From: Patescibacteria group bacterium
Lineage (GTDB): Bacteria > Patescibacteriota > Dojkabacteria > GCA-002793355
Assembly (NCBI GenBank): GCA_016860985.1
Contig: BOKM01000001.1
Coordinates: forward strand, 399,462-463,461
Length of the DNA stretch: 64,000 nt
Direction: 5' to 3'
A model generated the notes under the pieces. The model worked only from the letters and a program-made list of their open reading frames with translations. It ran no database searches and had not been told where the DNA came from. Positions 5,646 through 34,439 of the stretch are shown one piece after another (the first letter of the stretch is position 1; each line of letters begins with the position of its first letter). The translations under genes and the position numbers were made by a program.

Positions 5646-8600
5646 GGTCGAGTGTTAACACGCGAACACGTTCTTTACCTTCAGGAAGGATCTCAATAAA
5701 CGGAACCCCTGAAGCAAACATTTTCGTAGTGTCCATAAGCTTTAGGTGATAGCGAGCATTTGGAACAACAAAGCTATATTCGCCTGACGTACTCGTAAAC
5801 GTACGGTAAAGCAAAGTATTGAACTCTGGATCAAACAACCCCAGCTCTAGCCCAGCAACTGCTACACCTTTGGTAGTTTTAACACTTCCGGTCGACTTTT
5901 TAGGAAGGAGCTGCACAATCTTAGCCAACAACAGCAACACATACACGCCAAGCACAATGAAGTTGTATTTGTGAGGATAGATATACGCAATATACCCTCC
6001 ATACGCAAAGCCGCCTAACAACAGTGCGTTGCTAAAGAACTCAATCACCTTTGTGAACATACTTTGAGCCTGTAAACGCTTTCGTTCTTGGTCGGAAAGC
6101 GTAACCGAATCGAGCGGAATCGAAAAGAGCATTCCTTCCGAAGCGTTTGTCAACTCAATCTCTTGACCTTTATAGATATTATTAAAACCACCATCATTAT
6201 CAGCAGTTATTACAGAAGAAGGGAAGGTGTATCCGGCAAGTGTCACTGAAATGGTAAAGACACCTTGTTTTGGACTGAGACGAAAACTTCCTGTTGCATC
6301 TGAAACTACGGTATCTGCAATCTCTTTGTTGATATGTATCAACCGTACAACGGCTCGAGGAAGTGGCTTCTTTGTACGAGAGTCGTACACTACCCCACAT
6401 TTCTGTCGTTTTTTTCTACTGATAAACCCAGCCAAAGAGAGCCAGATATTCCCAAAGATAGTTGGTTGCTGTAACGCAATGACTGCTTCAATCGCAAGCA
6501 TGCTTGACCCAACCACAATTGTGTTACGCCAAGGGAGTTCAGTTGCTACCATTACAGTTACTGTTTTTACGGCTGTGCAATAGCCATTGTCAGCCGTAAT
6601 ACTATACTCTTTTGTTATTTCTGGCTTAAAAGTTACTGAATCCACCGGAGTAAAATCCTCTTTAAAGCCCGCAATGCGAACGATTTCTGTATTTTTTGTT
6701 GTCCACGAAAGAGTAATTTCTCCTCCTTTTTTTATTAGTGTTTCAGAGGTAGTAAATGTATCAAAAGTTGGGCACGCCGGAGTCGTTCCTTTTACCACTG
6801 GAGGCAAGGTTACAGCTGCGATTACACGAGGAGTGGATACCGGGGTTGCGACAATAGTATTCGTTGGAGTCGTGGTTGGTGTAAGCGTGACGGTTGTTGT
6901 CGGAGTCGCAGTAACGGTTGTTGTTGGTGTGGCAGTTGGAGTTGTTGTGCCATAACTCATGGCACCAGTTCCATCTAACCCACTTACCTTCCAGTACTCT
7001 TTGCCATCAACAGTTACTACTTCAAGTTCTGCAGAGCTTTCCGTAAGTACATAGCCACCGGTACAAGTTGAGCTAATGTCCGCAACTGTTACTGCATTTG
7101 GGCAAACGCGAACCGAGGTTTGCCCCGGTAATTTGTAAATATAAATTGAGTGCGTACTTGAAATACCTGGTGCAGTTGTTGGATTAAGATTAACTACGAG
7201 CGACTTTGACGCATTGGGCAATGTGATTGCATTTACTTGACTCCAGTCTCGATCTTCTGACAAATCAATATTAAAATCTGATACAAGATATTCCCCGAAA
7301 GTAAGGAGCGCATTAAGGTTATCAATTCCTGGGCTAGCCGGATTGTAGTACCTGCTCACCAAACTTGTATTCTCAGACGTAGAAAACTGCTCTTCTCCCG
7401 TAATTTCTTCTGCCGTAGATATTACATCTGCACTTGAAATTAGATTGTATATTCGCGTACCTGAAGGCACGAGTTGCACACGGTGGTTCGCCAAGTCTGC
7501 AACGGTAATAACACCTGATACCGGATTACGCGCTAAGCCTCGTGGTTCGTAGTATTCTTCCGTTCCACTCCCTGTTACTGCTCCGTATTTACGAAGAAAT
7601 ACGCCAGAATCGTTGAATACTTGAATTTTAGTATGATAACTCTCTGATACATGAAGATTCCCCTCTTCGTCAAAGGCCATACCTCCAATATCAAAGAAAG
7701 CTCCGTCTGCGTCGCCAGCTTCACCACCAATTGTTCTCACATACGTTCCGTTTGTGTCAAAGACCTGAATCACCGATTTACTTACAATTTCATCATTGTA
7801 TTCTTCGGTTTTTGAAGAGACATAAATCTGATCGCTTGAGTCAATAATAATTGCTAGAATTTGCCCAAACTCTCCATTTGCTTCTCCAAAGGTTCCCCAC
7901 TGGGTAAGGTAATTGCCAGCGCTATCAAATTTCTGCACTCTGTGATTACGCGAATCTCCCACATAGATATTTCCGGTCGAATCGACTGCTATTCCGTAGC
8001 CACCTTGAAATTGCCCATCACCAGTTCCTGCTGCTTCGATGTGCAGTAGCTGTGAGCCATCAAGTGCGAATTTATGAAATCCACTATTATCAGAAACGTA
8101 AATTTGGTCATTTTTTATCGTCATAAAATAGGCTTCAGTGTCAAAAGTAGGTGGTTCAACTATCGTTTCCATATACGTTCCCGCATTTGTGAATTTCTGA
8201 ATTCTGCCTTCATATGCACCGTTATCGAGGACATATAAGTTACCCTCAGAATCGTATGCAACAGCACGAGGGAAACTGAATTTACCCGAAGTAAACCCAC
8301 TATTTCTCACACTCGACACAAATACTCTTGAGCTAGAAAATTTTTGAATCGCTTGATGGTCGTAATCTGCAATGTAATAGTTACCTGCTGAATCTGTAAC
8401 CACATCAACAGGAGTTAATATCTGCCACGCACTATGACCGTGTTCCCCCCACGACCTAATCCAATCACCATCACTTTCGAATTCAATAATTTTGTGACCA
8501 TCTGTTCCGTGTGCAGATGTTACCAATACATCTCCATTTGCTTTTACATGAATACCTCGAGGCACTGCAAGTTGTCCATCTCCATTTCCACAACTGCCGA

Positions 8601-16595: not shown

Positions 16596-18029
16596 TTAAT
16601 TCGCCGCTGCTCTGGTCAACCTCTCCATTATTGTTCTTCCTAAACCTTTTCGCGGAAAGGACTGTGCAAAAACAAGAGAATATCGTTTTGCATCGCACTC
16701 CAGCAGTGCCCCAAAAATTGACGCAGCAATTGACGACAAATCCCGTTCACTTCCAAGAATGATCCGATTTACTTTTTTAGGAATTAGTGTCGCGAATTCT
16801 TTTGAACAAAGGATGCAAACACTTTCATGTGGGTTTTCATTGATTACTTTCAATAAATGTGCCCTCCACTTCTTTTTTGAATTAAGCGGCAAAACCGTCA
16901 ACTTCCCATTCGGAGCATAATGTTTGTACTTTGTTCCAGGAGACGAGCGTAAGTTTGTATCGTCTTCACCGGCGATAAGCACCTCATGAGTCGGGAACGT
17001 TGTCTTCAACTCCTCCTTTGTAATTGCTCCTTGCCTCATAATCACTATTTGCTCTTCATTTTTTGGGAGTACAACCGTAGATTCAATACCAAAGGTCGTG
17101 GGGCCACCAAGTACCACATGAGGAACTTCACTACCAAAGGCGTTTATAACATGAGCATGGTGCGTTGCGCTGGGCTTTCCAGATTTATTTGCAGAAGGTG
17201 CTGCAATCGGAACTCTTGCCGCGGCAAGGAGCTCTAGTGCAAATAAATTTGCAGGAATCCTAACTCCAACCAAAGAAGAATGCGCGGTAACTACAGACGG
17301 TAAGTTGTCATTTTTTGGAAGGAGTACCGTTAAAGGGCCAGGACTAAAATGCATAAACAGTGAAGTTGCGAGCTTCGGTACAGTTTGAGCGACTTCGTGG
17401 AGCTGTTCTACAGACGAAACGTGAACAATGAGGGGATTATCTGCAGGGCGATTCTTTGCACGAAAGATTTTTTCGACCGCAAAGGAGTCAAATGCATGTG
17501 CTCCAAGTCCGTATACTGTCTCGGTGGGAAAAGCAACGAGTTCTCCTTCTCTAATTTTTGCTCCAAAACGCTCAAAATCCTGGGAGAGCCACATTAGTTC
17601 GGGGACATTTACGTTCGGTGGGAGAACATTACCATACAGTTGCTGAACCAAGAAGGCAAACACTCGGGAAAAGAGTGTGAGCATATGAACAGCAGCCGTC
17701 GGAAGATCTTCCCACTCAGCGGACTTCACCTTTTTCTTGTTTCCAATTGTAAGATTTACCGTATTCACTGAGCAGAAAAAATAACTAATCCGACTTTCCG
17801 GTATAAGTGGATGGGCACGTTCTGCGATACAGGAAACTATCTCAATATCCATTCCGATATCAGATTTCACTTCTCTTTTAAGCGCAACCTCTGGGAGCTC
17901 TCCGTCAAGAACTTTACCCCCAGGTAATACGGCAGGAACCCCTCTAAACGACGGACGAATTTCTTCGCGCAGATGCTCTACTATTAGTTTTCCTTTGTGA
18001 ATTATTACGGCAAGCGCGACACGTTGCAT
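16596..18029 (-). CDS. Fusion of an N-terminal Nudix-hydrolase domain with L-threonylcarbamoyladenylate synthase (Sua5/YrdC/TsaC) including the Sua5 C-terminal domain
   Basis: Nudix box GGKVLDGELPEVALKREVKSDIG, in which the catalytic EE is replaced by SD. YrdC motifs FPTETVYGLG and KNRPADNPLIVHV are present. The C-terminal ~120 aa resemble the Sua5 domain. Confidence 0.8.
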   Translation of the reverse strand: MQRVALAVIIHKGKLIVEHLREEIRPSFRGVPAVLPGGKVLDGELPEVALKREVKSDIGMDIEIVSCIAERAHPLIPESRISYFFCSVNTVNLTIGNKKKVKSAEWEDLPTAAVHMLTLFSRVFAFLVQQLYGNVLPPNVNVPELMWLSQDFERFGAKIREGELVAFPTETVYGLGAHAFDSFAVEKIFRAKNRPADNPLIVHVSSVEQLHEVAQTVPKLATSLFMHFSPGPLTVLLPKNDNLPSVVTAHSSLVGVRIPANLFALELLAAARVPIAAPSANKSGKPSATHHAHVINAFGSEVPHVVLGGPTTFGIESTVVLPKNEEQIVIMRQGAITKEELKTTFPTHEVLIAGEDDTNLRSSPGTKYKHYAPNGKLTVLPLNSKKKWRAHLLKVINENPHESVCILCSKEFATLIPKKVNRIILGSERDLSSIAASIFGALLECDAKRYSLVFAQSFPRKGLGRTIMERLTRAAAN

Positions 18030-21984: not shown

Positions 21985-23211
21985 ATGTATAAATTTGCCC
22001 TCAGTTCACTCATGAAAAGAAATATAATTGCGGTTGGAATAATTTCTGCCTTGTCCATAGGTACCCTTACGCTTGTGCTTTCAAATTCATCAATTCCAGG
22101 GGATTTACTCTACAGGGTTGATCGAGGTGCCGAAAATACATGGCTTGCAATTACTGCCAATACGAACAAACTCGTATTCGGTAAATATAACTTGCAACTT
22201 GCGAAAGAGAGAACCGGCGAAATCAAGACGCTCTCAAATTCGAACATGGTAAAGAGCGCTACTATTAGAGTATACGCAGCTTCAACAAACGCAGATCAGC
22301 AAGTTATTAACGGACTTCTTGAAGATATCAAATACAACCTTACCTCTGCCAAAGAAATTATTCCAGAACTCTCCGCAAGTAATCAGACTGAATTCTCAGT
22401 TGATGTTGCTCAAGGATTAACAGAAATTGCTCAAGAATTAACGACCATCACTGAATCACTCCCCGAAACTTCGCTCTCACAGCTTGACGATTTAGTTAAT
22501 ACAATTGAAGACCTTGATGACACCGCAGTCGACATGCTCGCAAAAGCAGAAGACGAAAGTGAGGACGAGTCAGATGATGACAATGAAGTTTCTTCAACTC
22601 TTACCGCAAAATTAGAGCGTAAACTTTTAAAGCTTAGAGAAGAACATAGAATTTATTCCGCGCTACTACAACAAAACACAGCAAAAATTACACCTGAAAA
22701 AGCTGCTACCGCAGAAACCCTCTTACAACAAGTGACTGCAAGTTTGCAAGACGCAGAGAGTAAATTAGCCACGGGCGAATTAAAACTTGTTGCGGATATT
22801 ATCGACCGAACTGACGATGATTTGGATAAAGTAAAGGATTTGGTAAAAGTCGAAGACAACGACGAATCAGAGGGCGAAAACAGTAACGACCAAGATGAAT
22901 CGAACGATGATGATTCAAATGACCAACAAGACGAAGACAGTAATGACGATTCAAAAGACGAAAACGAAGATGAATCAGAACAAGAAGATGAGGAGGATGA
23001 CGAAAAAACGACCGTTACTCCTACTCCATCCAAAGTAGCCACTACTTCGACTCCAAAACCTTCAAAGACCCCAGAACCAACCGAAGTTGAGGACGAGGAA
23101 GAAGATGAATCAGAAAATGAAGAAGAGGACAGTGAGGATGAAGATGTAGAAGGAGCAACGACAAGACTTATAGAGTTAAAGGACATACTTCGCAATCGGC
23201 TAAGAATCTAG
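21985..23211 (+). CDS. Membrane-anchored coiled-coil protein with a long Asp/Glu-rich acidic tail, possibly DUF5667-like
   Basis: N-terminal anchor. PGDLLYRVDRGAEN resembles the DUF5667 N-region. A DE-rich low-complexity tract spans 22850..23160. Confidence 0.45.
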   Translation: MYKFALSSLMKRNIIAVGIISALSIGTLTLVLSNSSIPGDLLYRVDRGAENTWLAITANTNKLVFGKYNLQLAKERTGEIKTLSNSNMVKSATIRVYAASTNADQQVINGLLEDIKYNLTSAKEIIPELSASNQTEFSVDVAQGLTEIAQELTTITESLPETSLSQLDDLVNTIEDLDDTAVDMLAKAEDESEDESDDDNEVSSTLTAKLERKLLKLREEHRIYSALLQQNTAKITPEKAATAETLLQQVTASLQDAESKLATGELKLVADIIDRTDDDLDKVKDLVKVEDNDESEGENSNDQDESNDDDSNDQQDEDSNDDSKDENEDESEQEDEEDDEKTTVTPTPSKVATTSTPKPSKTPEPTEVEDEEEDESENEEEDSEDEDVEGATTRLIELKDILRNRLRI

Positions 23212-24257: not shown

Positions 24258-24819
24258 ATATATCGAATATCACGATACTGAATGGGGAGTGCCGACACAC
24301 GATGATGCACGCCATTTTGAATTTCTTATTCTAGAAGCTGCCCAAGCTGGATTAAGTTGGTTAACAATTTTACGTAAGCGCCAGGCGTATAAAATTGCCT
24401 TTGCAGACTTTGATGCAAATATTGTTGCCACGTATGGAGAAAAAGAGATTAACAAACTTCTATTAAATGAGGGGATTATTCGAAATCGTATGAAAATTAC
24501 GGCAGCAATAAACAATGCTCAACACTTCCTTCAGATTCAGAAAGATTGGGGTTCATTTGATTCATATTTATGGTCTTTTACTGAGAATAAAGTGATACAT
24601 AATAATTGGGAAAACATGCAACAGGTGCCTGCGCGTTCAGAACTTTCTGACAAGGTAAGTGCAGACTTAAAAAAGCGAGGATTTTCGTTTATCGGGACAA
24701 CAATAATGTACGCACATCTTCAAGCTGTTGGAGTCATAAACGATCATATAGTGTCTTGCTTTAGGCACGAGAATTTGCAGAGATTTACGCAAAATGCTAA
24801 TGTAATGGATGCCCCTTAG
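24199..24819 (+). CDS. tag: DNA-3-methyladenine glycosylase I
   Basis: RCPWC..P.Y..YHDTEWGVP..DD..LFE.L.LEAAQAGLSWLTIL.KR..Y..AF..FD...VA......I..LL.NEGIIRNRMKI.A.I.NAQ...IQK..GSF..YLWSF aligns along the whole length with E. coli Tag, including the zinc ligands. The start at MDISQ (24199) overlaps the upstream gene by 59 nt. Confidence 0.9.
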   Translation, partial: SMDISQDKKTRCPWCLATPEYIEYHDTEWGVPTHDDARHFEFLILEAAQAGLSWLTILRKRQAYKIAFADFDANIVATYGEKEINKLLLNEGIIRNRMKITAAINNAQHFLQIQKDWGSFDSYLWSFTENKVIHNNWENMQQVPARSELSDKVSADLKKRGFSFIGTTIMYAHLQAVGVINDHIVSCFRHENLQRFTQNANVMDAP

Positions 24820-25768
24820 TAAAGGATTGCTCATTGTTCTCACGATAATAATTTCGCTTGTTGGATTGTTTTTGGGCGGATATTTGTACCAAACACTAAG
24901 CAACCTGGACCTCGTTTCACCGAACAGAATAGAAAATAAACATTACTTCTCAGACGAAATTTTTATTAATGGACTCGGTCCGAACAACGAACCACTTTTC
25001 ATTCATCTTCTGTTAAACCGAAAACAGCGTGCCTCTGGCGACTACCTACATTATTACACCATGGAGATTGTTTCCCCCTCTCTGTCCAGAAAAATTATGC
25101 AGGAACAAGTATCAGCAGATGCAACTCTAATACCGCTACATGGCATTAAAAATATTACTCGCCAAACAGAGGAGGATCTATCTACGAGAGAGAGTTATGC
25201 CATAACCTTAGACTTTGGCAAAGAGATAGCGCTAAAGCTTTCACGATTCCAAGGAGATTTCCTACTCCATAACAAACTCGATCATACGAAGTACGCGAGT
25301 GCTGGTAAGGCCCTTATTACATTAGATGGCAAGGAATATGAACTAAACGCCCTCCTGACCAAGACCTTTGCACAAAACTATTCTACCTACGTATTTTTCG
25401 ACAATTTCGATCAACTCGATTCAACTACACACGTTGTTGTAGCTTGGGACCAAAACGACCAACTCTATTACCTCGACACTTCAGATACTCGCAGCAAGCA
25501 TACCGGTTATGGTTCCCATAAATGGGGATACTTTGGCAGCAAGCTTGGAGGGAAAAAACTCAGTAATATTACCATCACACACGCAACAACTGGAAAGAAC
25601 CCAACAGAATGGCAGGTCTCACTCCCCGAAATCGAAGATGGTGCACGATTAGAATTTAAGGTCAACTACCATGATTTATCACGTGCGGCTGGCTTACTGA
25701 AAGGAAAAGTAAAACTTGGAGAAACAGAAACTGAAATCTCAGGGTATGCAATTTATGCGGAGTATTAA
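24809..25768 (+). CDS. Membrane-anchored protein of unknown function, paralog A
   Basis: N-terminal TM. Shares NKHYF, FD.F.QL.ST.H..V.WD and ISGY motifs with the next gene. Confidence 0.45.
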   Translation: MPLSKGLLIVLTIIISLVGLFLGGYLYQTLSNLDLVSPNRIENKHYFSDEIFINGLGPNNEPLFIHLLLNRKQRASGDYLHYYTMEIVSPSLSRKIMQEQVSADATLIPLHGIKNITRQTEEDLSTRESYAITLDFGKEIALKLSRFQGDFLLHNKLDHTKYASAGKALITLDGKEYELNALLTKTFAQNYSTYVFFDNFDQLDSTTHVVVAWDQNDQLYYLDTSDTRSKHTGYGSHKWGYFGSKLGGKKLSNITITHATTGKNPTEWQVSLPEIEDGARLEFKVNYHDLSRAAGLLKGKVKLGETETEISGYAIYAEY

Positions 25769-25770
25769 TT

Positions 25771-26727
25771 ATGAATAAAAACGCACTCTTTATAACATTC
25801 CTTGTACTGTTTTTTGTTTCAATCGGAGGTGGCTTATTTCTATCAATAAAAATGCATGAGCTTGGTCTTGGTAACCGAATATCACGTCAGACCAACAAGC
25901 ATTACTTCAATGATAATTTCATTGTTTATGGCGTAGATAACAGAGGTACCCCTTTTCTGGCAGAAATATACTTGCAACGCAGTCAAAAAGATACAGGTGA
26001 GTTTGCTCATTTTTATAGAGTTGGCGTGTATTCTAACGGAAAGTTTTCTGAAAGCGAACAGCAAAAAACAATGCCCAAGCCAGAGATACAACCTTTCACC
26101 TTTCTCGACAGTTTTAAAACTTCATTTGGGGCAGATTTTTCTGCAAAACAAACATTTGTTATCGATTTTACCGTAGATTCAATTTCTTATTCATTGGCAA
26201 CTGATATTTTTAATGGTGATTTTATCGTAAGGAATGATCCTGATTATATGAAACATGTCAGTTTTGCTAATGGTACACTTGCAAGAGAAAAAGAGATTAT
26301 TCCTGTCAGTATTGCATATCTCGGAACTTATGCCGAAGATAGCAATAAGTACATATATTTTGATGGGTTTTATCAACTGCAGTCAACAGCACACCTTCTC
26401 GTACTTTGGGATGAAGCAAAAAATGTATACCTCATTGATAAATCACGGGTAAAAAGTACGCATCAGTTCTACAAATCACACACATGGGTGCTTAATAAAA
26501 GCGCCGACGGATATCTACAAAAAGCTTTTACGGCAGGTTTAAGCTACAATGAGTCCGAAGAATACCCCACTAAATGGATTATTACCCTTCCGACACTACA
26601 GAACGCAACACTTAGTCTTGAGACTGATTTCCTAAACGATACTGCATGGGGATATACGACAGGAACAATAAATGATAATGCCGGAATCCGTAAAATAAGC
26701 GGATATTCCCTCCTTACCTATTACTAA
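25771..26727 (+). CDS. Membrane-anchored protein of unknown function, paralog B
   Basis: Same length and the same conserved motifs as 24809..25768. Begins 2 nt after it. Confidence 0.45.
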   Translation: MNKNALFITFLVLFFVSIGGGLFLSIKMHELGLGNRISRQTNKHYFNDNFIVYGVDNRGTPFLAEIYLQRSQKDTGEFAHFYRVGVYSNGKFSESEQQKTMPKPEIQPFTFLDSFKTSFGADFSAKQTFVIDFTVDSISYSLATDIFNGDFIVRNDPDYMKHVSFANGTLAREKEIIPVSIAYLGTYAEDSNKYIYFDGFYQLQSTAHLLVLWDEAKNVYLIDKSRVKSTHQFYKSHTWVLNKSADGYLQKAFTAGLSYNESEEYPTKWIITLPTLQNATLSLETDFLNDTAWGYTTGTINDNAGIRKISGYSLLTYY

Positions 26728-27026
26728 CGTTTAAGGTAGTAAATAATACCAGTAATTGCTGCAATAATCGCAATAATTACCAACCACGTAACAAGGACTA
26801 ATAAAAAGAACTTTTTCTTAGAAGATTTATATTTATCAATATTGATAAATACAGAAATAAGGGTAACAGGTAAACTCGCTATCGCTAGAACAATGCCGAT
26901 TATCTGTGTTAAGCCCAAAATTACAGGAACAACAACGACAATAGCTTTTGCTGGATATACCATTGCAATCGTAAATAATAGGGTAAGAGTGTACAATATG
27001 CCAGCTACGAATTTCCAATATTTCAT
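26724..27026 (-). CDS. Small hydrophobic membrane protein
   Basis: 100 aa, about 3 TM helices, with a KR-rich C-terminal end. Confidence 0.35.
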   Translation of the reverse strand: MKYWKFVAGILYTLTLLFTIAMVYPAKAIVVVVPVILGLTQIIGIVLAIASLPVTLISVFINIDKYKSSKKKFFLLVLVTWLVIIAIIAAITGIIYYLKR

Positions 27027-27028
27027 AT

Positions 27029-28462
27029 ATGAATAATAGCACTACAACTCAAGATGCACTAAGTGAGCTTCAATCTCACATGCAGCCATTTTCACTATAC
27101 TATCAATCAGAAGCGGCAGCGCTTGTTGAGTTCCCTACTCCCTTTACCGCATCAGTAATTTCCAGACTTTTTTCGTTTGAAGGTTCTCAAGGTATTGCCT
27201 ATAAATCGCTTGGGTTGCCAATTACCAAATACAAAACAGACGACTATGTAAAATATCTATTTAGTCGAGTGTATCTTGATATTGGTTATGAAAACATCTT
27301 TTTTTATCAAAATCTTGGCTTAAGATACATGCCAGAAGAATCAGGATCAAATCCCGAACTGAAACCACTACAAAACATTGTTAGTCGATTAATTGGCGCA
27401 CTACGCAACGCGTTTGTACATGCCAGCATCCTTCAGCAAAAACAACAAATCATAAACAAGGCACAATCTTTGTTTGAGCGATTGTATCCACAGCGACCAT
27501 CGCAACAAACAAAAAGTGACTCAGTTGCCCAACTAGAGGTACTCGTCAAAGAGTTCACCGAAGATTATGCTGTTATATTTGAACTCTCGTATCTTGAAGG
27601 GTTAATCGCGCAAACTTTACCACAAGAAGAAATCGCCAGACTTTCCCCCGCCAGTAGTGATCTGTATGTAGAATCGAACGATATATTGGGCAGTAAAGAC
27701 ATATCAGTCACAGAGATTATTGAGAGATTTGGAACAAGGGGATTTAATGATTTTGAATTTGCTGCACCACGATGGCACGAAATTCCGGACGTTTTGCAAA
27801 AATTACGTTCTCCACAAACGCAACAAGCACCGATTGCAGCTACTACTACAAATCAAAGAACGATTGAACTTCAAGAAATCATTACGTTAAAAGACAATCT
27901 TCGGCTTGCAATTACCGTATACGTCGATTCCATTAGAAAAGCACTCTTTTCGATTGCAAATGCACATGAACTTACAAATGATTTAGTCTTTTATCTCACA
28001 CTTGATGATTTTGAAAGACTTAAACCAAACGAGTGGCTCAATGCCGCTCGTCGGCGCAAAAATGAATATGAAACTGGAAAGGCAGTATATCTTCCACGAT
28101 TTATCACAAGAGATACTGTCACGCAAGAAAATACGATTCAAATAAAAAATCAATACAAAGCAATTCCCGTCTCAAGTGGAAGCGTGACTGCCCCAATATT
28201 TAAGGTAAGTAATTCAGAAAAAGAAATACCACAAGGGATTATTCTTTTGTTACCTCACGCCGGACCTGAGTTTACCGTCTTTTATAAAAATGCAGTTGGA
28301 ATTATTTTTCAGAAAGGAGGAATACTGTCGCATGGTGCCATAATCGCCCGAGAAATGCGTATTCCCGCAGTTGTTTGCGCTGACTTTGATTCAAATGCAC
28401 AACTTGCAATTCTTGATGCCTCAAAAGGAGAAATAAGCTTAACTGAGGAATCTGCGGCATGA
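27029..28462 (+). CDS. PEP-utilizing enzyme mobile (phosphohistidine) domain protein with a large N-terminal domain of unknown function
   Basis: The C-terminal ~90 aa are GSVTAPIF..LLLPHAGPEFTVFYKNAVGIIFQKGGILSHGAIIAREMRIPAVV, a typical PEP-utilizers His-swivel domain with the GGxxSHxAIxARE motif. Confidence 0.65.
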   Translation: MNNSTTTQDALSELQSHMQPFSLYYQSEAAALVEFPTPFTASVISRLFSFEGSQGIAYKSLGLPITKYKTDDYVKYLFSRVYLDIGYENIFFYQNLGLRYMPEESGSNPELKPLQNIVSRLIGALRNAFVHASILQQKQQIINKAQSLFERLYPQRPSQQTKSDSVAQLEVLVKEFTEDYAVIFELSYLEGLIAQTLPQEEIARLSPASSDLYVESNDILGSKDISVTEIIERFGTRGFNDFEFAAPRWHEIPDVLQKLRSPQTQQAPIAATTTNQRTIELQEIITLKDNLRLAITVYVDSIRKALFSIANAHELTNDLVFYLTLDDFERLKPNEWLNAARRRKNEYETGKAVYLPRFITRDTVTQENTIQIKNQYKAIPVSSGSVTAPIFKVSNSEKEIPQGIILLLPHAGPEFTVFYKNAVGIIFQKGGILSHGAIIAREMRIPAVVCADFDSNAQLAILDASKGEISLTEESAA

Positions 28463-29253
28463 GTGTTATTCGACTCGACAAACATACCCCACCAGATATC
28501 TCGAGATTAGGAGGTAAGGGTGCAAACCTTGCAAAGTTACTTTCACTTGGCTGTCGCATCCCAGACTGTATTGCAATATCGCATGACCACCCAACCGCAC
28601 AAATTCTCACTGACGTGCTTCCTATTTGGGATGAATTGCATTTTCAATTAGCGGCAGTAAGAAGTAGCGCCACAGCCGAAGATTCGATAGACCAAAGCTT
28701 TGCAGGTATGTTTTCAACCTACCTTTACGTGAGCAAAGATAAACTTCTTGAAAAAATAACGCTTTGTCGACAATCTCTCTCCCTTCCAAGAGTAGCTGAT
28801 TACATTACGCGGATGTCCATTTCAAAAGAAAATGTTCACGTTAACGTTCTTGTGCAAAAGATGATAGAAGCAGACGCCTCCGGTGTTTGTTTTACAAAAA
28901 ATCCTTTAACTAATGATTCAAACGAGATTGTTATAGAAGCAATTCATGGGCAAGGCGAGTTGCTCGTTTCTGGACAAGTGACACCCGATTATTACCGTAT
29001 TGCCAAGCACAAGAATGTTCTGCTTGAGAAAAATATCTCAACCCAAGAAATTATTTTAGACAAAAAATCTCGTACCATTCGACCAAGGGAAATGGAGTTG
29101 CAACATGTACCCAAAATCTCTGAACCGATGCTTTACTTACTCAGAGAACAAGCAGAAAGTATTGAAAATATGTACCAGAAGCCGGTAGATATTGAATGGG
29201 CAGTCGAAAACGGAGTGCTTTATATATTGCAAGCACGTCCGATTACAACGTAG
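28459..29253 (+). CDS. Pyruvate phosphate dikinase-type PEP/pyruvate-binding (PPDK_N, ATP-grasp) domain protein
   Basis: LGGKGANLAKL, AVRSSATAEDS..SFAGMFSTYL and the C-terminal IEWAVENGVLYILQARPIT are PPDK_N hallmarks. Its start overlaps the previous stop (ATGA). Confidence 0.7.
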   Translation: MSVIRLDKHTPPDISRLGGKGANLAKLLSLGCRIPDCIAISHDHPTAQILTDVLPIWDELHFQLAAVRSSATAEDSIDQSFAGMFSTYLYVSKDKLLEKITLCRQSLSLPRVADYITRMSISKENVHVNVLVQKMIEADASGVCFTKNPLTNDSNEIVIEAIHGQGELLVSGQVTPDYYRIAKHKNVLLEKNISTQEIILDKKSRTIRPREMELQHVPKISEPMLYLLREQAESIENMYQKPVDIEWAVENGVLYILQARPITT

Positions 29254-30265
29254 CATCGAGCGCCAGCTCAATTGCATCTTGATAACTTTGTCGATTTTTA
29301 CTTCCCCTTATCTCTCCATGAGTACCAGTTACAGTACCAAGATGAAAGGATTCGCCTAGCTTTTGTGCAATTAATTGAGCTTCTCCTCTTACAGGTTCTG
29401 TTAGCTCACTTAAATCTTTTGCGGCCCAGTACATATGCACATGCTTTGCGTTTCCATAGTTATCTTTTTTTTCGAACAAGTCGCCTAACTGCTGTATCGT
29501 TCCATAGAGTGAGTTCAGAATGGAAGCAATATTTGGCGGCATATCAAATTTAATGAAGAAATCGTTTGTTGCAGGTACTTTATCGTACAATTTGAGCATT
29601 GCAGCTGCAGACCTTGGTCCAGAAACAGCAGCGTTTAACAATGCTGCAAGGATTCTATTTGTAGATCGTTGTAGCGTAGGAAAGCGTTCTTTCGCCCTTT
29701 CCCACCGCTTTACTGCCCCTTCTCTACTTTCTTGTGTAAATGTAACAGGTTCAAAAAGGAGCAAAGACTTAATCCTTTGATCTTCTGATGGTCTTTGCGC
29801 AACTGTATACGCTGCAATATCTGCTCCCATACTTATGCCTCCGATGACAACCTCGTAGGGCATAGTAGCACAAGACATATTAATATATTCATTTGCATCT
29901 TGAGCTAAAGTTTCTGGATTGATAATGGGCAATTGGTTTGTTTCTAACATTGGGGCAAATAGGACAACAATCTTGTCGACCTTTCCCCCTTCAAGTAAGG
30001 GTCTAATTAACTGATAATATTCGCCTGTAGGTGGATTTCGTGCACCCTGAAAGAGTATCACCATACGTGGAGGTCTATCTTCATGTGTCGTTTGTTTTTC
30101 AACAGGTAATTGATATGTGGATATTACATTCCCGTGGACAGTTTCTGTAACATCAATATCCAGTCCACCATAAAATTGAGGAAACTTTTCAAATACCGCA
30201 GAAAGATATTGCGACTCTTTGCCTACGTTTTGTCCTTCTATATCAACTACCTTGCCCAGCATCAT
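29243..30265 (-). CDS. Putative alpha/beta-hydrolase fold protein
   Basis: A GISMG nucleophile-elbow (GxSxG) sits in the middle of the protein. Otherwise unassigned. Confidence 0.4.
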   Translation of the reverse strand: MMLGKVVDIEGQNVGKESQYLSAVFEKFPQFYGGLDIDVTETVHGNVISTYQLPVEKQTTHEDRPPRMVILFQGARNPPTGEYYQLIRPLLEGGKVDKIVVLFAPMLETNQLPIINPETLAQDANEYINMSCATMPYEVVIGGISMGADIAAYTVAQRPSEDQRIKSLLLFEPVTFTQESREGAVKRWERAKERFPTLQRSTNRILAALLNAAVSGPRSAAAMLKLYDKVPATNDFFIKFDMPPNIASILNSLYGTIQQLGDLFEKKDNYGNAKHVHMYWAAKDLSELTEPVRGEAQLIAQKLGESFHLGTVTGTHGEIRGSKNRQSYQDAIELALDATL

Positions 30266-32174: not shown

Positions 32175-32774
32175 ATGAAAGAATTTTTTGAATCATTCCC
32201 CGTTCTTGTCATCTCAATTATTGCAACAATTACCGGAGGAACTGCTGTTAACAAGGTAGTACAGGAAATTAAATCCACGACTCCAAATAACGAGCAAAAA
32301 GTGGTTGAAGTAAAAAGGGTTGAAACTACCCCAAGTGCACTGCCAACTCTAGTAGTAACAGAACCTGCTGTAAACCCAACTGCTACCCCAGAGGTGGTAC
32401 AACCCACTACGCCAAAAAACGGCCAAAACGCGACTTTTACTGCTGCGACCCTTGCACTTCATAACAAGCCTGGAGATTGCTACGTTGCCTACAAAGGAAT
32501 TGTCTACAATGTTTCTTCACACCCTTCGTGGGCTTCCTGCCGACACCACGGCACAAGTGGAGGAAGGGATATTACATCAATTTTTCCTCATTCTACAAGC
32601 TACTTTCTTACTTTGAGCAAAGTTGGCACGATTTCAACTAGTAACGCCACTAGTCCAACAAAACCTTCAGATGATTCTCATGACGACGATTCCGAAGATA
32701 ATGAAGACGAAGAACACGAGGATGAGAGAGAGGATGAGGACGAAAACGAGGTTGAAATAGAAGATGAAGACTAA
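32175..32774 (+). CDS. Membrane-anchored cytochrome b5-like heme-binding domain protein with an acidic C-terminal tail
   Basis: TM anchor and Pro/Thr linker. YKGIVYNVSSHP...HHGTSGGRDITSIFPH resembles the b5 heme-binding fold (H..GG..D.T..F..H). An Asp/Glu-rich tail follows. Confidence 0.5.
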   Translation: MKEFFESFPVLVISIIATITGGTAVNKVVQEIKSTTPNNEQKVVEVKRVETTPSALPTLVVTEPAVNPTATPEVVQPTTPKNGQNATFTAATLALHNKPGDCYVAYKGIVYNVSSHPSWASCRHHGTSGGRDITSIFPHSTSYFLTLSKVGTISTSNATSPTKPSDDSHDDDSEDNEDEEHEDEREDEDENEVEIEDED

Positions 32775-33135
32775 CATCACAAAGCAAAAAGCAAAGATCT
32801 CGATGAGGATGCTCGCAATCATCCTCATCGGTTGTCTTATAGGAATATTGTATCTTTACAAATGGCAACCGCAAAAAGAAACTGTACTCCCAAATCAATT
32901 AGAGTCCTTCACTCTCACTGAACTAGCAAAATACAATGGTAGTAATCCGACGTTGCCAATATATATCGGATTAAATGGTTTAGTCTACGATGTCAGCAGT
33001 GGAAAGAAATTTTATGAACAAGGTGGCACATATAATTGGCTTGCAGGAAAGGATTCCAGCAACGATTTAAACCTAATTGGAGGGGATATTATTAAGCGTA
33101 AATATCCAGTTGTTGGTATACTAACTACGGAGTAA
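32764..33135 (+). CDS. Membrane-anchored MAPR/PGRMC-type cytochrome b5-like heme/steroid-binding domain protein
   Basis: FTLTELAKYNGSNPTLPIYIGLNGLVYDVSSGKKFYEQGGTYNWLAGKDSS matches the MAPR signature (F....L..YNG....PIY.A..G.VYDV..G..FY..GG.Y...AG.D.S). Confidence 0.6.
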   Translation: MKTNITKQKAKISMRMLAIILIGCLIGILYLYKWQPQKETVLPNQLESFTLTELAKYNGSNPTLPIYIGLNGLVYDVSSGKKFYEQGGTYNWLAGKDSSNDLNLIGGDIIKRKYPVVGILTTE

Positions 33136-33140
33136 CAAGT

Positions 33141-34439
33141 ATGAATCGGACCTCACTTCTCTTTTTGTCGAGTATCGCAATCACATTTGTTCTTTGGATA
33201 CTTTCCAAAGAACATTTTGTGCTTTTTGTTTCGACTGATACGCTGAAAGCAATAACGCAGATTTGTGCACTAATCGGCGCTGTTGGATATTTTTTCACCT
33301 ATATTCTTTCAAGTAAACTTCCATTTCTTGAAAAAATAACCTCTTTAGACCAACTCTATAAAACGCACCGGCTAGTAGGAACACTCGCAGGTGCGGGTAT
33401 ATTACTCCATGTAAGTTCATTGATAGCGCGACTTTTACCACTCCCTTCGGCGTTTACGCTCTACCTTATTCCTAGCACAAATCTCTCTTATAACGTTGGA
33501 ATACTCGCTTTTTACTTACTACTTGTACTCCTTATTACTACGTTATATGCAAATCTGCCGTATCATATCTGGAAGCTTATACACAAGCTCGCTTCTTTTG
33601 GTATTCTCTTTGCTTTTCTGCACCTTCTCATTATTCCTAGCGATATAAGCACGAATTTACCCTTGAGAATATGGATGATTGGCATTGCTACTCTAGGAAT
33701 GATTGCGTGGGTATACAAAGAGTTTTTGGAGCAGTTTATTCGCAAATCTTTTGAGTATCGAGTAACCAATATCGCAAAAGCTGATGACATTACGGTCATT
33801 ACGATGCAAGCTCAAAAAGATTCGATTCCAGCTACACCGGGGTCTTTTGCTTTCTTTACTTTCTATGCAGATAACAAAGTCGTTACTAAGGAATCGCACC
33901 CGTTTACCATTCTAGACACAAACGCGAACGAACTCGCGATTGCTGTTAAAAACCTTGGAGACTACACGACTCTAATATCGTATATCCCCGTTGGATCAAA
34001 AGTCGTAGTAACCGGCCCTCATGGCAAGTTTGGAAAAAGGATACTTGCAACAAAAGAACAGCAAGTCTGGATAGGTGCAGGCATAGGGATCACCCCCTTT
34101 TATAGTGTCGCTTCGTATCTTCAAAAAAGGGGCTTATCTCATCATTCAATAGATTTATTTTATTTCACCTCAACGCCTGACAAAATTTTCCACCCTACGC
34201 TGCTCGCATCTGCAAAAGAAACTGGAATCAAGTATACATATGCGTGCACATCAATTTCTGGTCGCCAATTACCGTCGAACCTGCTCAGTGAGGACACAGT
34301 TTCTAACAAAAAAGTGACTTATTTTTTGTGTGGTCCAGCAGGAATGATTAGCGCTTATTCTGAATATCTTTTATCTAAAGGCGTACCCCAAAAGAGAATT
34401 ATTACTGAAGCATTTGAGTTTAAATCGCTTGAAATATGA
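33141..34439 (+). CDS. NOX/ferric-reductase-like transmembrane flavocytochrome: bis-heme FRD domain plus FAD- and NAD-binding dehydrogenase domain
   Basis: Six TM helices carry two His pairs, spaced 13 (HRLVGTLAGAGILLH) and 12 (HKLASFGILFAFLH) residues apart. This is the bis-heme motif of the ferric reductase domain. The C-terminal FNR-like region has HPFTI (FAD) and GAGIGITPF plus CGP (NAD) motifs. Confidence 0.75.
   Translation: MNRTSLLFLSSIAITFVLWILSKEHFVLFVSTDTLKAITQICALIGAVGYFFTYILSSKLPFLEKITSLDQLYKTHRLVGTLAGAGILLHVSSLIARLLPLPSAFTLYLIPSTNLSYNVGILAFYLLLVLLITTLYANLPYHIWKLIHKLASFGILFAFLHLLIIPSDISTNLPLRIWMIGIATLGMIAWVYKEFLEQFIRKSFEYRVTNIAKADDITVITMQAQKDSIPATPGSFAFFTFYADNKVVTKESHPFTILDTNANELAIAVKNLGDYTTLISYIPVGSKVVVTGPHGKFGKRILATKEQQVWIGAGIGITPFYSVASYLQKRGLSHHSIDLFYFTSTPDKIFHPTLLASAKETGIKYTYACTSISGRQLPSNLLSEDTVSNKKVTYFLCGPAGMISAYSEYLLSKGVPQKRIITEAFEFKSLEI

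Follow-up and report, generated by a model that had tools for sequence, protein, structure and literature searches.

A split, His-first gene pair in a Patescibacterium probably encodes a two-component rifampin phosphotransferase-like dikinase

In a 64,000-nucleotide stretch of contig BOKM01000001.1 (assembly GCA_016860985.1, positions 399,462 to 463,461) from a Patescibacteria group bacterium, hereafter the window, we found that two adjacent forward-strand genes probably encode the two subunits of a small-molecule dikinase related to rifampin phosphotransferase (RPH), of the two-component type represented by PpsAB, CreHI and HpeHI. Gene 1 (the "H" subunit; 27029..28462, +, 477 aa) is an open reading frame (ORF) for a helical substrate-binding domain of RPH type with a phosphohistidine swivel domain C-terminal to it, and gene 2 (the "I" subunit; 28459..29253, +, 264 aa) is an ORF for a minimal PPDK_N ATP-grasp domain. 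The pair offers a separate PPDK_N subunit with an intact ATP/Mg site, an H subunit, adjacent co-oriented genes and no TIM barrel. The initial annotation of this DNA, made from the letters alone, had placed both ORFs at these positions and had read them as a phosphotransferase of the phosphoenolpyruvate (PEP) synthase/pyruvate phosphate dikinase (PPDK) superfamily split over two adjacent genes, which the PF00391 and PF01326 matches confirmed. It had also suggested that the pair may be a small-molecule phosphotransferase as yet uncharacterised. This view, and not that of a PEP synthase, was borne out by the presence of an RPH-type substrate domain and the absence of the TIM barrel PF02896. The motifs that it quoted were all recovered (GGILSHGAIIAREMRIPAVV at aa 430-449 of gene 1; LGGKGANLAKL, AVRSSATAEDS and LQARPIT in gene 2). 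The split, His-first layout is real but is already known from phenol- and lignin-degrading bacteria.

Domains and fold of gene 1

Pfam placed PEP-utilizers (PF00391) at aa 400-467 of gene 1 with E 2.2e-14, over the gathering score, and PPDK_N (PF01326) on gene 2 with E 2.9e-61, both far beyond chance. The swivel domain (28142..28459, +; ~aa 372-477), which forms the beta-rich C-terminal domain of the structural model described below, matched the swivel domains of PPDK, PEP synthase (PEPS) and Enzyme I, and gave a weak match to the Pfam family GWD1_pHisD (E 0.012; 15.6 bits vs a cut-off of 27). The substrate-binding domain preceding it (27029..28141, +; ~aa 1-371), resembling the rifampin-binding domain (RIF-BD) of RPH, was delimited from the model and alignment; it is predominantly helical and has longer counterparts in RPH and PpsA, and its boundary with the swivel domain is approximate.

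The N-terminal ~380 aa of gene 1 had been described as having no obvious homology, a description that profile searches overturned. Single-sequence searches with gene 1 reached just the last ~140 residues. A profile built from six sequences, compared with Listeria RPH (5FBS), matched residues 561-865 at E 1e-42, so that the comparison with the rifampin-binding domain advised initially revealed homology. When 1.8 billion representatives were searched exhaustively by profile, 4,147 proteins were retrieved at E < 1e-30, in which profile positions ~25-490 aligned with residues ~300-830 of fused proteins of 800-930 aa, and also with the whole of standalone proteins of 480-600 aa; the more distant of the gene 1 relatives carried PF27448, "Rph_4th".

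Structure comparison agreed with these profiles. In a Foldseek search with an AlphaFold2 model of gene 1 (51 sequences; predicted local distance difference test, pLDDT, 82; predicted template modelling score, pTM, 0.74), RPH was the sole full-length match, extending over ~550-580 columns at E 1e-12 with ~14-15% identity in the structural alignment, and all other PDB matches spanned just the ~125-residue swivel domain. The same pattern, with RPH matched over its full length and other structures by their swivel domains only, has been described for a structure search of HpeH (PMC12167813). Profiles, model and structural match all point to the RPH substrate domain, in line with the earlier suggestion that the N-terminal region of gene 1 may bind the substrate, a role that we consider likely.

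Short H subunits like gene 1, 477-509 aa in length, form a rare clade whose members, 28-39% identical to gene 1, comprise proteins P0001, P0004, P0204, P0249, P0267 and P0219 and the protein of locus L098 (P and L numbers are our labels). Members share the motifs LK(D/N/G)N(L/V/M)R and [FY]GxRxF[ND]D[FY]E[FL]. A DNA scan of 241 million metagenome records for the second motif returned two real loci and one chance match (L100), and a clade-motif scan of viral contigs returned no locus.

Catalytic residues of the two subunits

Functional residues were located by rebuilding most of the Listeria monocytogenes RPH sequence from the HMMER alignment and mapping it to the residues mutated in PMC4844700, a study in which the roles of the ATP-site and His residues were tested by mutagenesis and R666/E667 were found to act in phosphotransfer, the R666A and E667A variants losing the second half-reaction only. 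By alignment and sequence, His435 of gene 1 (codon 28331..28333, +) is equivalent to RPH His825, and its counterpart was invariant in 52/52 aligned sequences. Two positions upstream (-2), the regulatory Thr of PEPS and PPDK is absent and Leu433 is found instead, and the -1 residue is Ser, as in PpsA and CreH; both features of the catalytic His context have been described (PMC12167813). Residue mapping identified K288-D289-N-L-R292 (27890..27904, +) as the counterpart of the RPH phosphotransfer motif R666-E667...K670, for which it reads as a conservative replacement; the form that this motif takes in the clade is LK(D/N/G)N(L/V/M)R. Alignment to RPH and 50 relatives further indicated that gene 1 has lost the arm-2 segment of RPH in which T523 lies and that RPH Q337 is replaced by Ala.

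The ATP site of gene 2 is likewise retained, with K20, R68, T87 and E246 aligned to RPH K22, R117, T136 and E297, and Q258 and R260 of the C-terminal QxRP motif aligned to Q309 and R311, so that the conservation of catalytic residues extends to both proteins. Gene 2 had been called a complete PPDK_N domain. The domain is rather a minimal one, its shortness being due to the loss of the ~45-residue helical insert found at RPH ~55-100.

Against Azoarcus PpsB, gene 2 was 39% identical over 208 aa. The best 120 of its >4,700 matches were all standalone PPDK_N proteins of 181-328 aa, and it grouped with other short ATP-grasp subunits of the candidate phyla radiation (CPR) type at 39-50% identity, whose H partners resemble gene 1 in the swivel domain only. 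This pattern would fit an ATP module that has stayed conserved while its substrate modules vary, and the fission events were probably independent of the PpsAB lineage, as judged from these similarities rather than from a tree.

The gene junction and its conservation

As the initial annotation had noted, gene 2 begins at an overlapping ATGA: its ATG lies inside the 4-nt start/stop overlap (28459..28462, +) that holds the gene 1 stop, an arrangement from which translational coupling of the two genes may be inferred. A GAGGA sequence lies at 28445-28449, 9 nt 5' of the gene 2 ATG, and was not kept in L001. In the independent assemblies L095 (77% identity) and L001 (39% identity), where we checked the junctions, the His gene is again followed by the ATP gene with an ATGA overlap. 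The pair with its 4-nt overlap was kept in independent assemblies from 93% down to 39% identity, and near-identical proteins are on record from metagenome-assembled genomes of "Patescibacteria group bacterium". The overlap is 11 nt long in L101, where identity between the H subunit and gene 1 is 32%.

Misassembly, in the form of a single gene rendered in reversed order, had been named as a finding that would undo the split. We excluded it because standalone subunits are abundant and because the same pair recurs in the independent assemblies L095, L001 and L101. Differences between the window and L095 were concentrated at third codon positions in both gene 1 (73/48/187 at positions one, two and three) and gene 2 (17/9/78), which indicated purifying selection on both genes, and within gene 1 the swivel domain was under stronger constraint than the N-terminal domain in the same comparison.

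At its 3' end gene 2 meets a convergent 340-aa gene (29243..30265, -), the 3' ends overlapping by 11 bp (29243-29253). This neighbour gave sub-threshold alpha/beta-hydrolase matches only; it is kept in L095 and absent in L001.

Split and fused layouts among relatives

The split and its permuted order had been presented as unusual, with the proviso that database relatives might show the arrangement to be common and already characterised. Our survey showed exactly this. HpeHI of Rhodococcus, CreHI of Corynebacterium glutamicum and PpsAB of Thauera/Azoarcus are characterised two-component dikinases of the same subunit composition (PMC12167813), and PasAB of Desulfatiglans anilini is a further two-component example. 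In each of the three characterised systems the genes are adjacent and co-oriented, the regulatory Thr is missing, the standalone ATP-grasp protein (HpeI, CreI or PpsB) corresponds to gene 2, and HpeH, CreH or PpsA, like gene 1, joins an RPH-like substrate-binding domain to a C-terminal swivel His domain. The crystal structure of HpeI is homologous to the RPH ATP-grasp domain, and HpeH is homologous to the rifampin-binding and swivel domains of RPH, its H581Q mutant being inactive (PMC12167813). The window pair differs from these systems in its Patescibacterium host, in having membrane proteins rather than carboxylases or oxygenases as neighbours, and in size, with 477 aa in gene 1 vs ~610 aa for a PpsA-type subunit and 264 aa in gene 2 vs ~375 aa; with PpsA, gene 1 shares just the swivel region and ~100 preceding residues.

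Gene order varies among the known systems. In the pps operon on the plasmid of Azoarcus sp. KH32C, as read from the annotated record, a PEP-utilizing enzyme (611 aa), a PEP/pyruvate-binding protein (375 aa), a CBS protein and ppcBDAG follow one another, so that H precedes I as in the window, with an H/I gap of 13 nt; a cre-like cluster of Rhodococcus ruber has I before H with a 4-nt overlap. Among the loci that we collected from small-genome lineages, H then I was found in L001, in L003-5 (Peregrinibacteria) and in L091, and I then H in L002. Three-gene splits were found in L007 (426-2768) and L008 (154-3941), where proteins of 111 aa (swivel), 366 aa and 314 aa (ATP-grasp) are encoded in this order beside ribosomal protein L32, nusB and rnc, and in L089/L090 (4563-6738), where proteins of ~358 aa, 111 aa (swivel only) and 245 aa (ATP-grasp) are encoded 3' of a His_Phos_1 phosphatase gene. 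Apparently lone I genes occur on the CPR contigs L092 (6001-6828) and L093 (1666-2526), with no recognisable H gene beside them. These loci suggest that H and I subunits can be unlinked or can work with other partners. In the Peregrinibacteria loci L003-5, an HD-domain gene lies 5' of the pair.

Fused relatives showed a different order. Among the best 150 representative clusters found with the gene 1 profile, 100 were fused with the ATP domain first, ~40 were without an ATP-grasp domain and 0 were fused with the His domain first. Over the whole of gene 1, the closest relatives outside the clade, among the matches listed, were uncharacterised fused RPH-like proteins of ~840-1000 aa from Poribacteria, Planctomycetota and Verrucomicrobiota (for example P0199, E 8e-130 vs the gene 1 profile), and fused Poribacteria/Planctomycetota proteins made up nearly all of the matches listed in a scan of species-representative genomes with the same profile. 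Unlike the window pair, the Poribacteria/Planctomycetota relatives have the ATP domain first, and they are 21-27% identical to gene 1.

The initial annotation had stated as a rule that the ATP-grasp domain comes first and the His domain last in PpsA, PPDK and rifampin phosphotransferase. For PEP synthase and PPDK this fails in its second half, since the His domain there is central and not last. Plant alpha-glucan water dikinase GWD1 shows another order, with a central acceptor-binding domain, then the His domain and then a C-terminal ATP-binding domain in one chain (PMC13553574). The order of gene 1 and gene 2 is no inversion of a universal rule, because Azoarcus is His-first, Rhodococcus ruber has the opposite order and GWD1 runs from His to ATP domain in a single chain. 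GWD1 thus shares with the window pair both domain order and swivelling-His dikinase chemistry; it differs in that its ~1400 aa form one chain, which carries starch-binding CBM45 modules, and in acting on a glucan polymer. We found no significant sequence match between gene 1 and the GWD1 central domain, and the pair does not qualify as a glucan water dikinase, as it has no CBM match and its domains are spread over two genes.

Proposed mechanism and points that weigh against it

By homology with RPH, PpsAB and HpeHI, gene 2 would bind Mg-ATP as a minimal ATP-grasp subunit. The swivel domain of gene 1 would then dock on gene 2 in a transient H:I complex, as proposed from these related systems, and His435 would attack the ATP beta-phosphate to give a pyrophosphoryl-histidine, from which the gamma-phosphate would be hydrolysed with release of AMP and Pi. 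The phospho-His domain would subsequently swing back to the helical substrate-binding domain of gene 1 itself, where K288, D289 and R292 may help to move the phosphate to a hydroxyl or amino group of the bound small molecule. The conserved residues predict the overall reaction ATP + substrate -> AMP + Pi + phospho-substrate, by way of phospho-His. Pyruvate is not the substrate, because no PEP/pyruvate TIM-barrel domain is present, and rifampin and phenol are probably not the substrate either.

Several observations weigh against a straightforward assignment to the PpsAB/CreHI/HpeHI type. The counterpart of the essential RPH residue E667 is D, N or G across the clade, and this change, together with the arm-2 deletion, suggests that the second half-reaction may differ in detail. 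Pfam Rph_4th is not on record for P0001-P0004, the close relatives of gene 1. The match between gene 1 and PpsA begins just at ~residue 274, so that carrying the substrates of PpsAB, CreHI and HpeHI over to gene 1 is not justified. Three H genes of the clade, in L098 (9768-11282), L102 (1235-2716) and L103 (3634-5079), are followed by no ATP-grasp gene, so the H subunit may sometimes do without a partner encoded next to it. Dikinase activity in the short-H clade is presumed by homology.

Alternative identities

Four other identities were weighed against the two-component dikinase. The first, that the pair is a split antibiotic phosphotransferase, that is, an RPH-type resistance enzyme for rifamycin or another antibiotic, we consider very unlikely. 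RPH is the closest solved structure and the sole full-length structural match, and the catalytic His and the basic/acidic phosphotransfer motif are kept. RPH of L. monocytogenes (PDB 5FBS, 5HV1; PMC4844700) moreover has the same ATP-grasp, helical substrate-binding and C-terminal swivel His domains, and K22, R117, T136, E297 and H825 are all preserved in the window pair. It is, however, a single ~865-aa chain with the ATP-grasp domain first, whereas the window pair is split with the ATP-grasp domain encoded second, lacks both the arm-2 segment and the ATP-grasp helical insert, and has K-D...R for R-E...K. The arm-2 segment helps to form the rifampin cleft, so its deletion, together with the change of Q337 to Ala, argues against this substrate, as does an identity to RPH of ~14-15% in the structural alignment. 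The RPH equivalog model NF041857 scored 49 bits with gene 1 and 144 bits with gene 2 against a cut-off of 999, the nearest relatives outside Patescibacteria, among the matches listed, were the uncharacterised fused Poribacteria/Planctomycetota proteins, and the surrounding genes offered no resistance or mobile-element context. The antibiotic-modifying role floated in the initial annotation is pure conjecture.

Slightly less probable still is orthology with phenylphosphate synthase, CreHI or HpeHI, by which the pair would start the catabolism of a phenolic compound. The two-subunit architecture is shared, as is the PpsA-PpsB gene order, gene 2 has its 39% identity to PpsB, and similar genes of DPANN archaea are annotated as phenylphosphate synthase (PMC8091004). 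Gene 1 does not follow suit: in BLASTP it aligned with Azoarcus PpsA over aa 374-449 only, at 31% identity, hhalign extended the match to aa 274-477 only, and the match by hidden Markov model (HMM) was confined to the swivel domain. HpeH, CreH and PpsA are ~45% identical to one another (PMC12167813), and gene 1 falls outside this whole-subunit similarity. Within ~20 kb on either side we found no PpsC-like CBS protein, phenylphosphate carboxylase/UbiD, P450 or oxidoreductase cluster, and the pair belongs to a reduced-genome Patescibacterium whose contig measures ~1.05 Mb.

We give even less credit to the idea that a true PEP synthase or PPDK, serving central metabolism, has been split into two genes, although both domains belong to the PEPS/PPDK superfamily, gene 2 matched PEP-synthase models of NCBIfam at E 1e-50, and IMG names a near-identical member of the gene 2 cluster "pyruvate,water dikinase". 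PEP synthase and PPDK do share homologous ATP-grasp and swivel His domains and dikinase chemistry (ATP -> AMP + Pi, or PPi) with the window pair, but their C-terminal PEP/pyruvate TIM barrel, central His domain and regulatory Thr all have no equivalent in it. No PF02896 TIM barrel was detected in either protein at E <= 0.1, which led us to reject a true PEP synthase, and the place of pyruvate binding is taken by the helical RPH-type domain. The His domain is C-terminal with Leu for the regulatory Thr at -2, scores with NCBIfam PEPS/PPDK models were far under the cut-offs (172 vs 598 bits; TIGR01418, 165 vs 740 bits), and RPH, a combination of the same three kinds of domain, leaves pyruvate unphosphorylated (PMC4844700). 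The best NCBIfam matches of the pair were RPH/PRK06241-type "PEP synthases", PigC and RedH, all far under their cut-offs.

Least credible is a functionless remnant of a fused gene, either a fission pseudogene or an assembly artefact, for although the closest listed relatives outside the clade are fusions that begin with the ATP domain and both proteins are shorter than characterised homologues, both ORFs are intact with their catalytic residues kept, the pair and its overlap persist across independent assemblies down to 39% identity, substitutions show the third-position bias, and thousands of standalone ATP-grasp subunits exist. A known anti-phage defence system was also ruled out, as PADLOC gave no defence-system match for gene 1, gene 2, the small membrane protein or the 319-aa neighbour described below.

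The short-H clade and its membrane-protein neighbours

The putative dikinase is accompanied in its clade by membrane proteins, an observation that is new here. Back to back with gene 1, and with 2 bp between the two start codons (CATATATG in the window), lies a gene for a small membrane protein of ~100 aa (26724..27026, -), which we identified from an eight-locus alignment. The N-terminus of this protein resembles a signal peptide and includes an AxA site, and a Lys-rich loop joins its two transmembrane (TM) helices. An opposite-strand ORF of ~100 aa was present 5' of the H gene in every clade locus with enough flank, with starts 2-16 bp apart, namely in the window, L095 (7696-7998), L001 (~5699-5998), L098 (9464-9775), L101 (934-1185), L102 (~930-1230) and L103 (3319-3618), and partially in L099 (1077-1394); the ORF aligned across all eight loci. 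It had been missed by the source gene callers in L001 and L102, and the exact protein sequence was absent from a collection of 15 billion proteins. Identity to the L001 counterpart was 54% (tblastn, E 1e-29), differences from L095 by codon position were 8/9/25, and the small membrane protein is likely part of the same module as the H subunit. A riboswitch or other RNA element in the 300-bp gap 5' of gene 1, which might have pointed to the substrate, was considered and rejected, as the gap gave no Rfam match and holds this opposite-strand protein-coding gene.

Beyond the small ORF, the window carries two tandem genes for beta-rich paralogues of ~319 aa each (24809..25768 and 25771..26727, +), 26% identical to one another and each consisting of one N-terminal TM helix and an all-beta domain. 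One or two copies of this family (~300-357 aa) were found directly beyond the small ORF in L098, L101, L102 and L103 by a family HMM (E 1e-58 to 1e-119), and a window protein matched the L098 protein in BLASTP at E 7e-14. The family corresponds to no Pfam family, and a profile search of PDB sequences gave nothing significant; the Pfam family AsqO_C matched weakly (E 0.035) in 1/7 members. In a low-confidence model built from two sequences (pLDDT 54), the best structural matches were kievitone hydratase and fungal pericyclases (E 3e-6, TM-score 0.45-0.48). An AttH/CrtC-like double beta-barrel fold that would bind hydrophobic ligands, toward which the weak AsqO_C match also points, is accordingly offered as a lead, not a result. 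Such a fold fits the known liking of the dikinase family for hydrophobic hydroxylated substrates and the "phosphorylate to trap" idea of scavenging raised for HpeHI (PMC12167813).

An ATP-grasp gene lies directly 3' of H in the window and in L095, L001 and L101, but not in L098, L102 or L103. A block comprising DUF5667, acyltransferase-3, Tag glycosylase and other genes is common to the window, L001 and L095 and absent from L098, L102 and L103; we regarded it as genome collinearity and dropped the attempt to draw a function from wider synteny. The trio of H, small ORF and beta-rich gene is more than collinearity, because the remaining flanks differ between lineages, and we infer that the beta-rich proteins also belong to the module. 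The constant membrane-protein neighbours hint at a membrane-linked role, and their invariable adjacency suggests a hydrophobic or membrane-associated compound as the substrate.

A bolder extension, which we rate as unlikely but still worth stating, is that the short-H clade, instead of being a kinase that stands free in the cytoplasm, forms the cytoplasmic arm of a membrane-associated four-part module. Besides H, this would comprise the ~100-aa two-TM protein, an ATP-grasp subunit whose gene sometimes lies at another site, and beta-barrel proteins, one or two in number and anchored in the membrane, which may bind hydrophobic ligands in the manner of AttH or kievitone hydratase. Such a module might capture a hydrophobic compound from the host or environment (a lipid, isoprenoid alcohol, quinol or phenolic) and, by phosphorylation, trap or activate it within the cell. 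If true, it would constitute a new "capture-and-phosphorylate" scavenging system built on dikinase chemistry in an episymbiotic Patescibacterium.

Consequences for annotation

Neither the split nor the order of its genes is new or rare, and they open no new enzymology; their consequence lies in naming. IMG gives the name "pyruvate,water dikinase" to a 264-aa protein from the 90%-identity cluster of gene 2, and related DPANN genes have been read as phenylphosphate synthase (PMC8091004). Through names of this kind, the reconstructed metabolism of an ultra-small organism can acquire steps of gluconeogenesis or aromatic degradation that are false. A minimal RPH-type dikinase of 477 + 264 aa may also serve as a compact scaffold for structural work on, and engineering of, the swivelling mechanism, and the constant tiny membrane protein and beta-rich neighbours provide a testable lead to function in Patescibacteria. 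To our knowledge, very few Patescibacteria-specific gene modules have a mechanistic hypothesis.

Other features of the window

Rfam and tRNA searches of the window gave no match, and promoter and terminator scans around the locus did no better than on shuffled sequence. Its gene content includes large surface proteins, peptidases, cell-wall enzymes and a fused NUDIX-Sua5 protein, the last being a 477-aa fusion (16596-18029, -) of an N-terminal NUDIX domain with Sua5/YrdC and Sua5_C (threonylcarbamoyl-AMP synthase). A 408-aa protein (21985-23211, +) has a very acidic, low-complexity, D/E/S-rich C-terminal half, and its homologues in L001 and L095 gave faint or weak DUF5667 matches. Downstream, 32175-34439 (+) encodes two small Cyt-b5-like proteins (199 and 123 aa) followed by a 432-aa ferric-reductase-like membrane flavoprotein with Ferric_reduct, FAD_binding_8 and NAD_binding_1 domains, a redox module that is unexpected for a reduced-genome Patescibacterium and is kept in L095.

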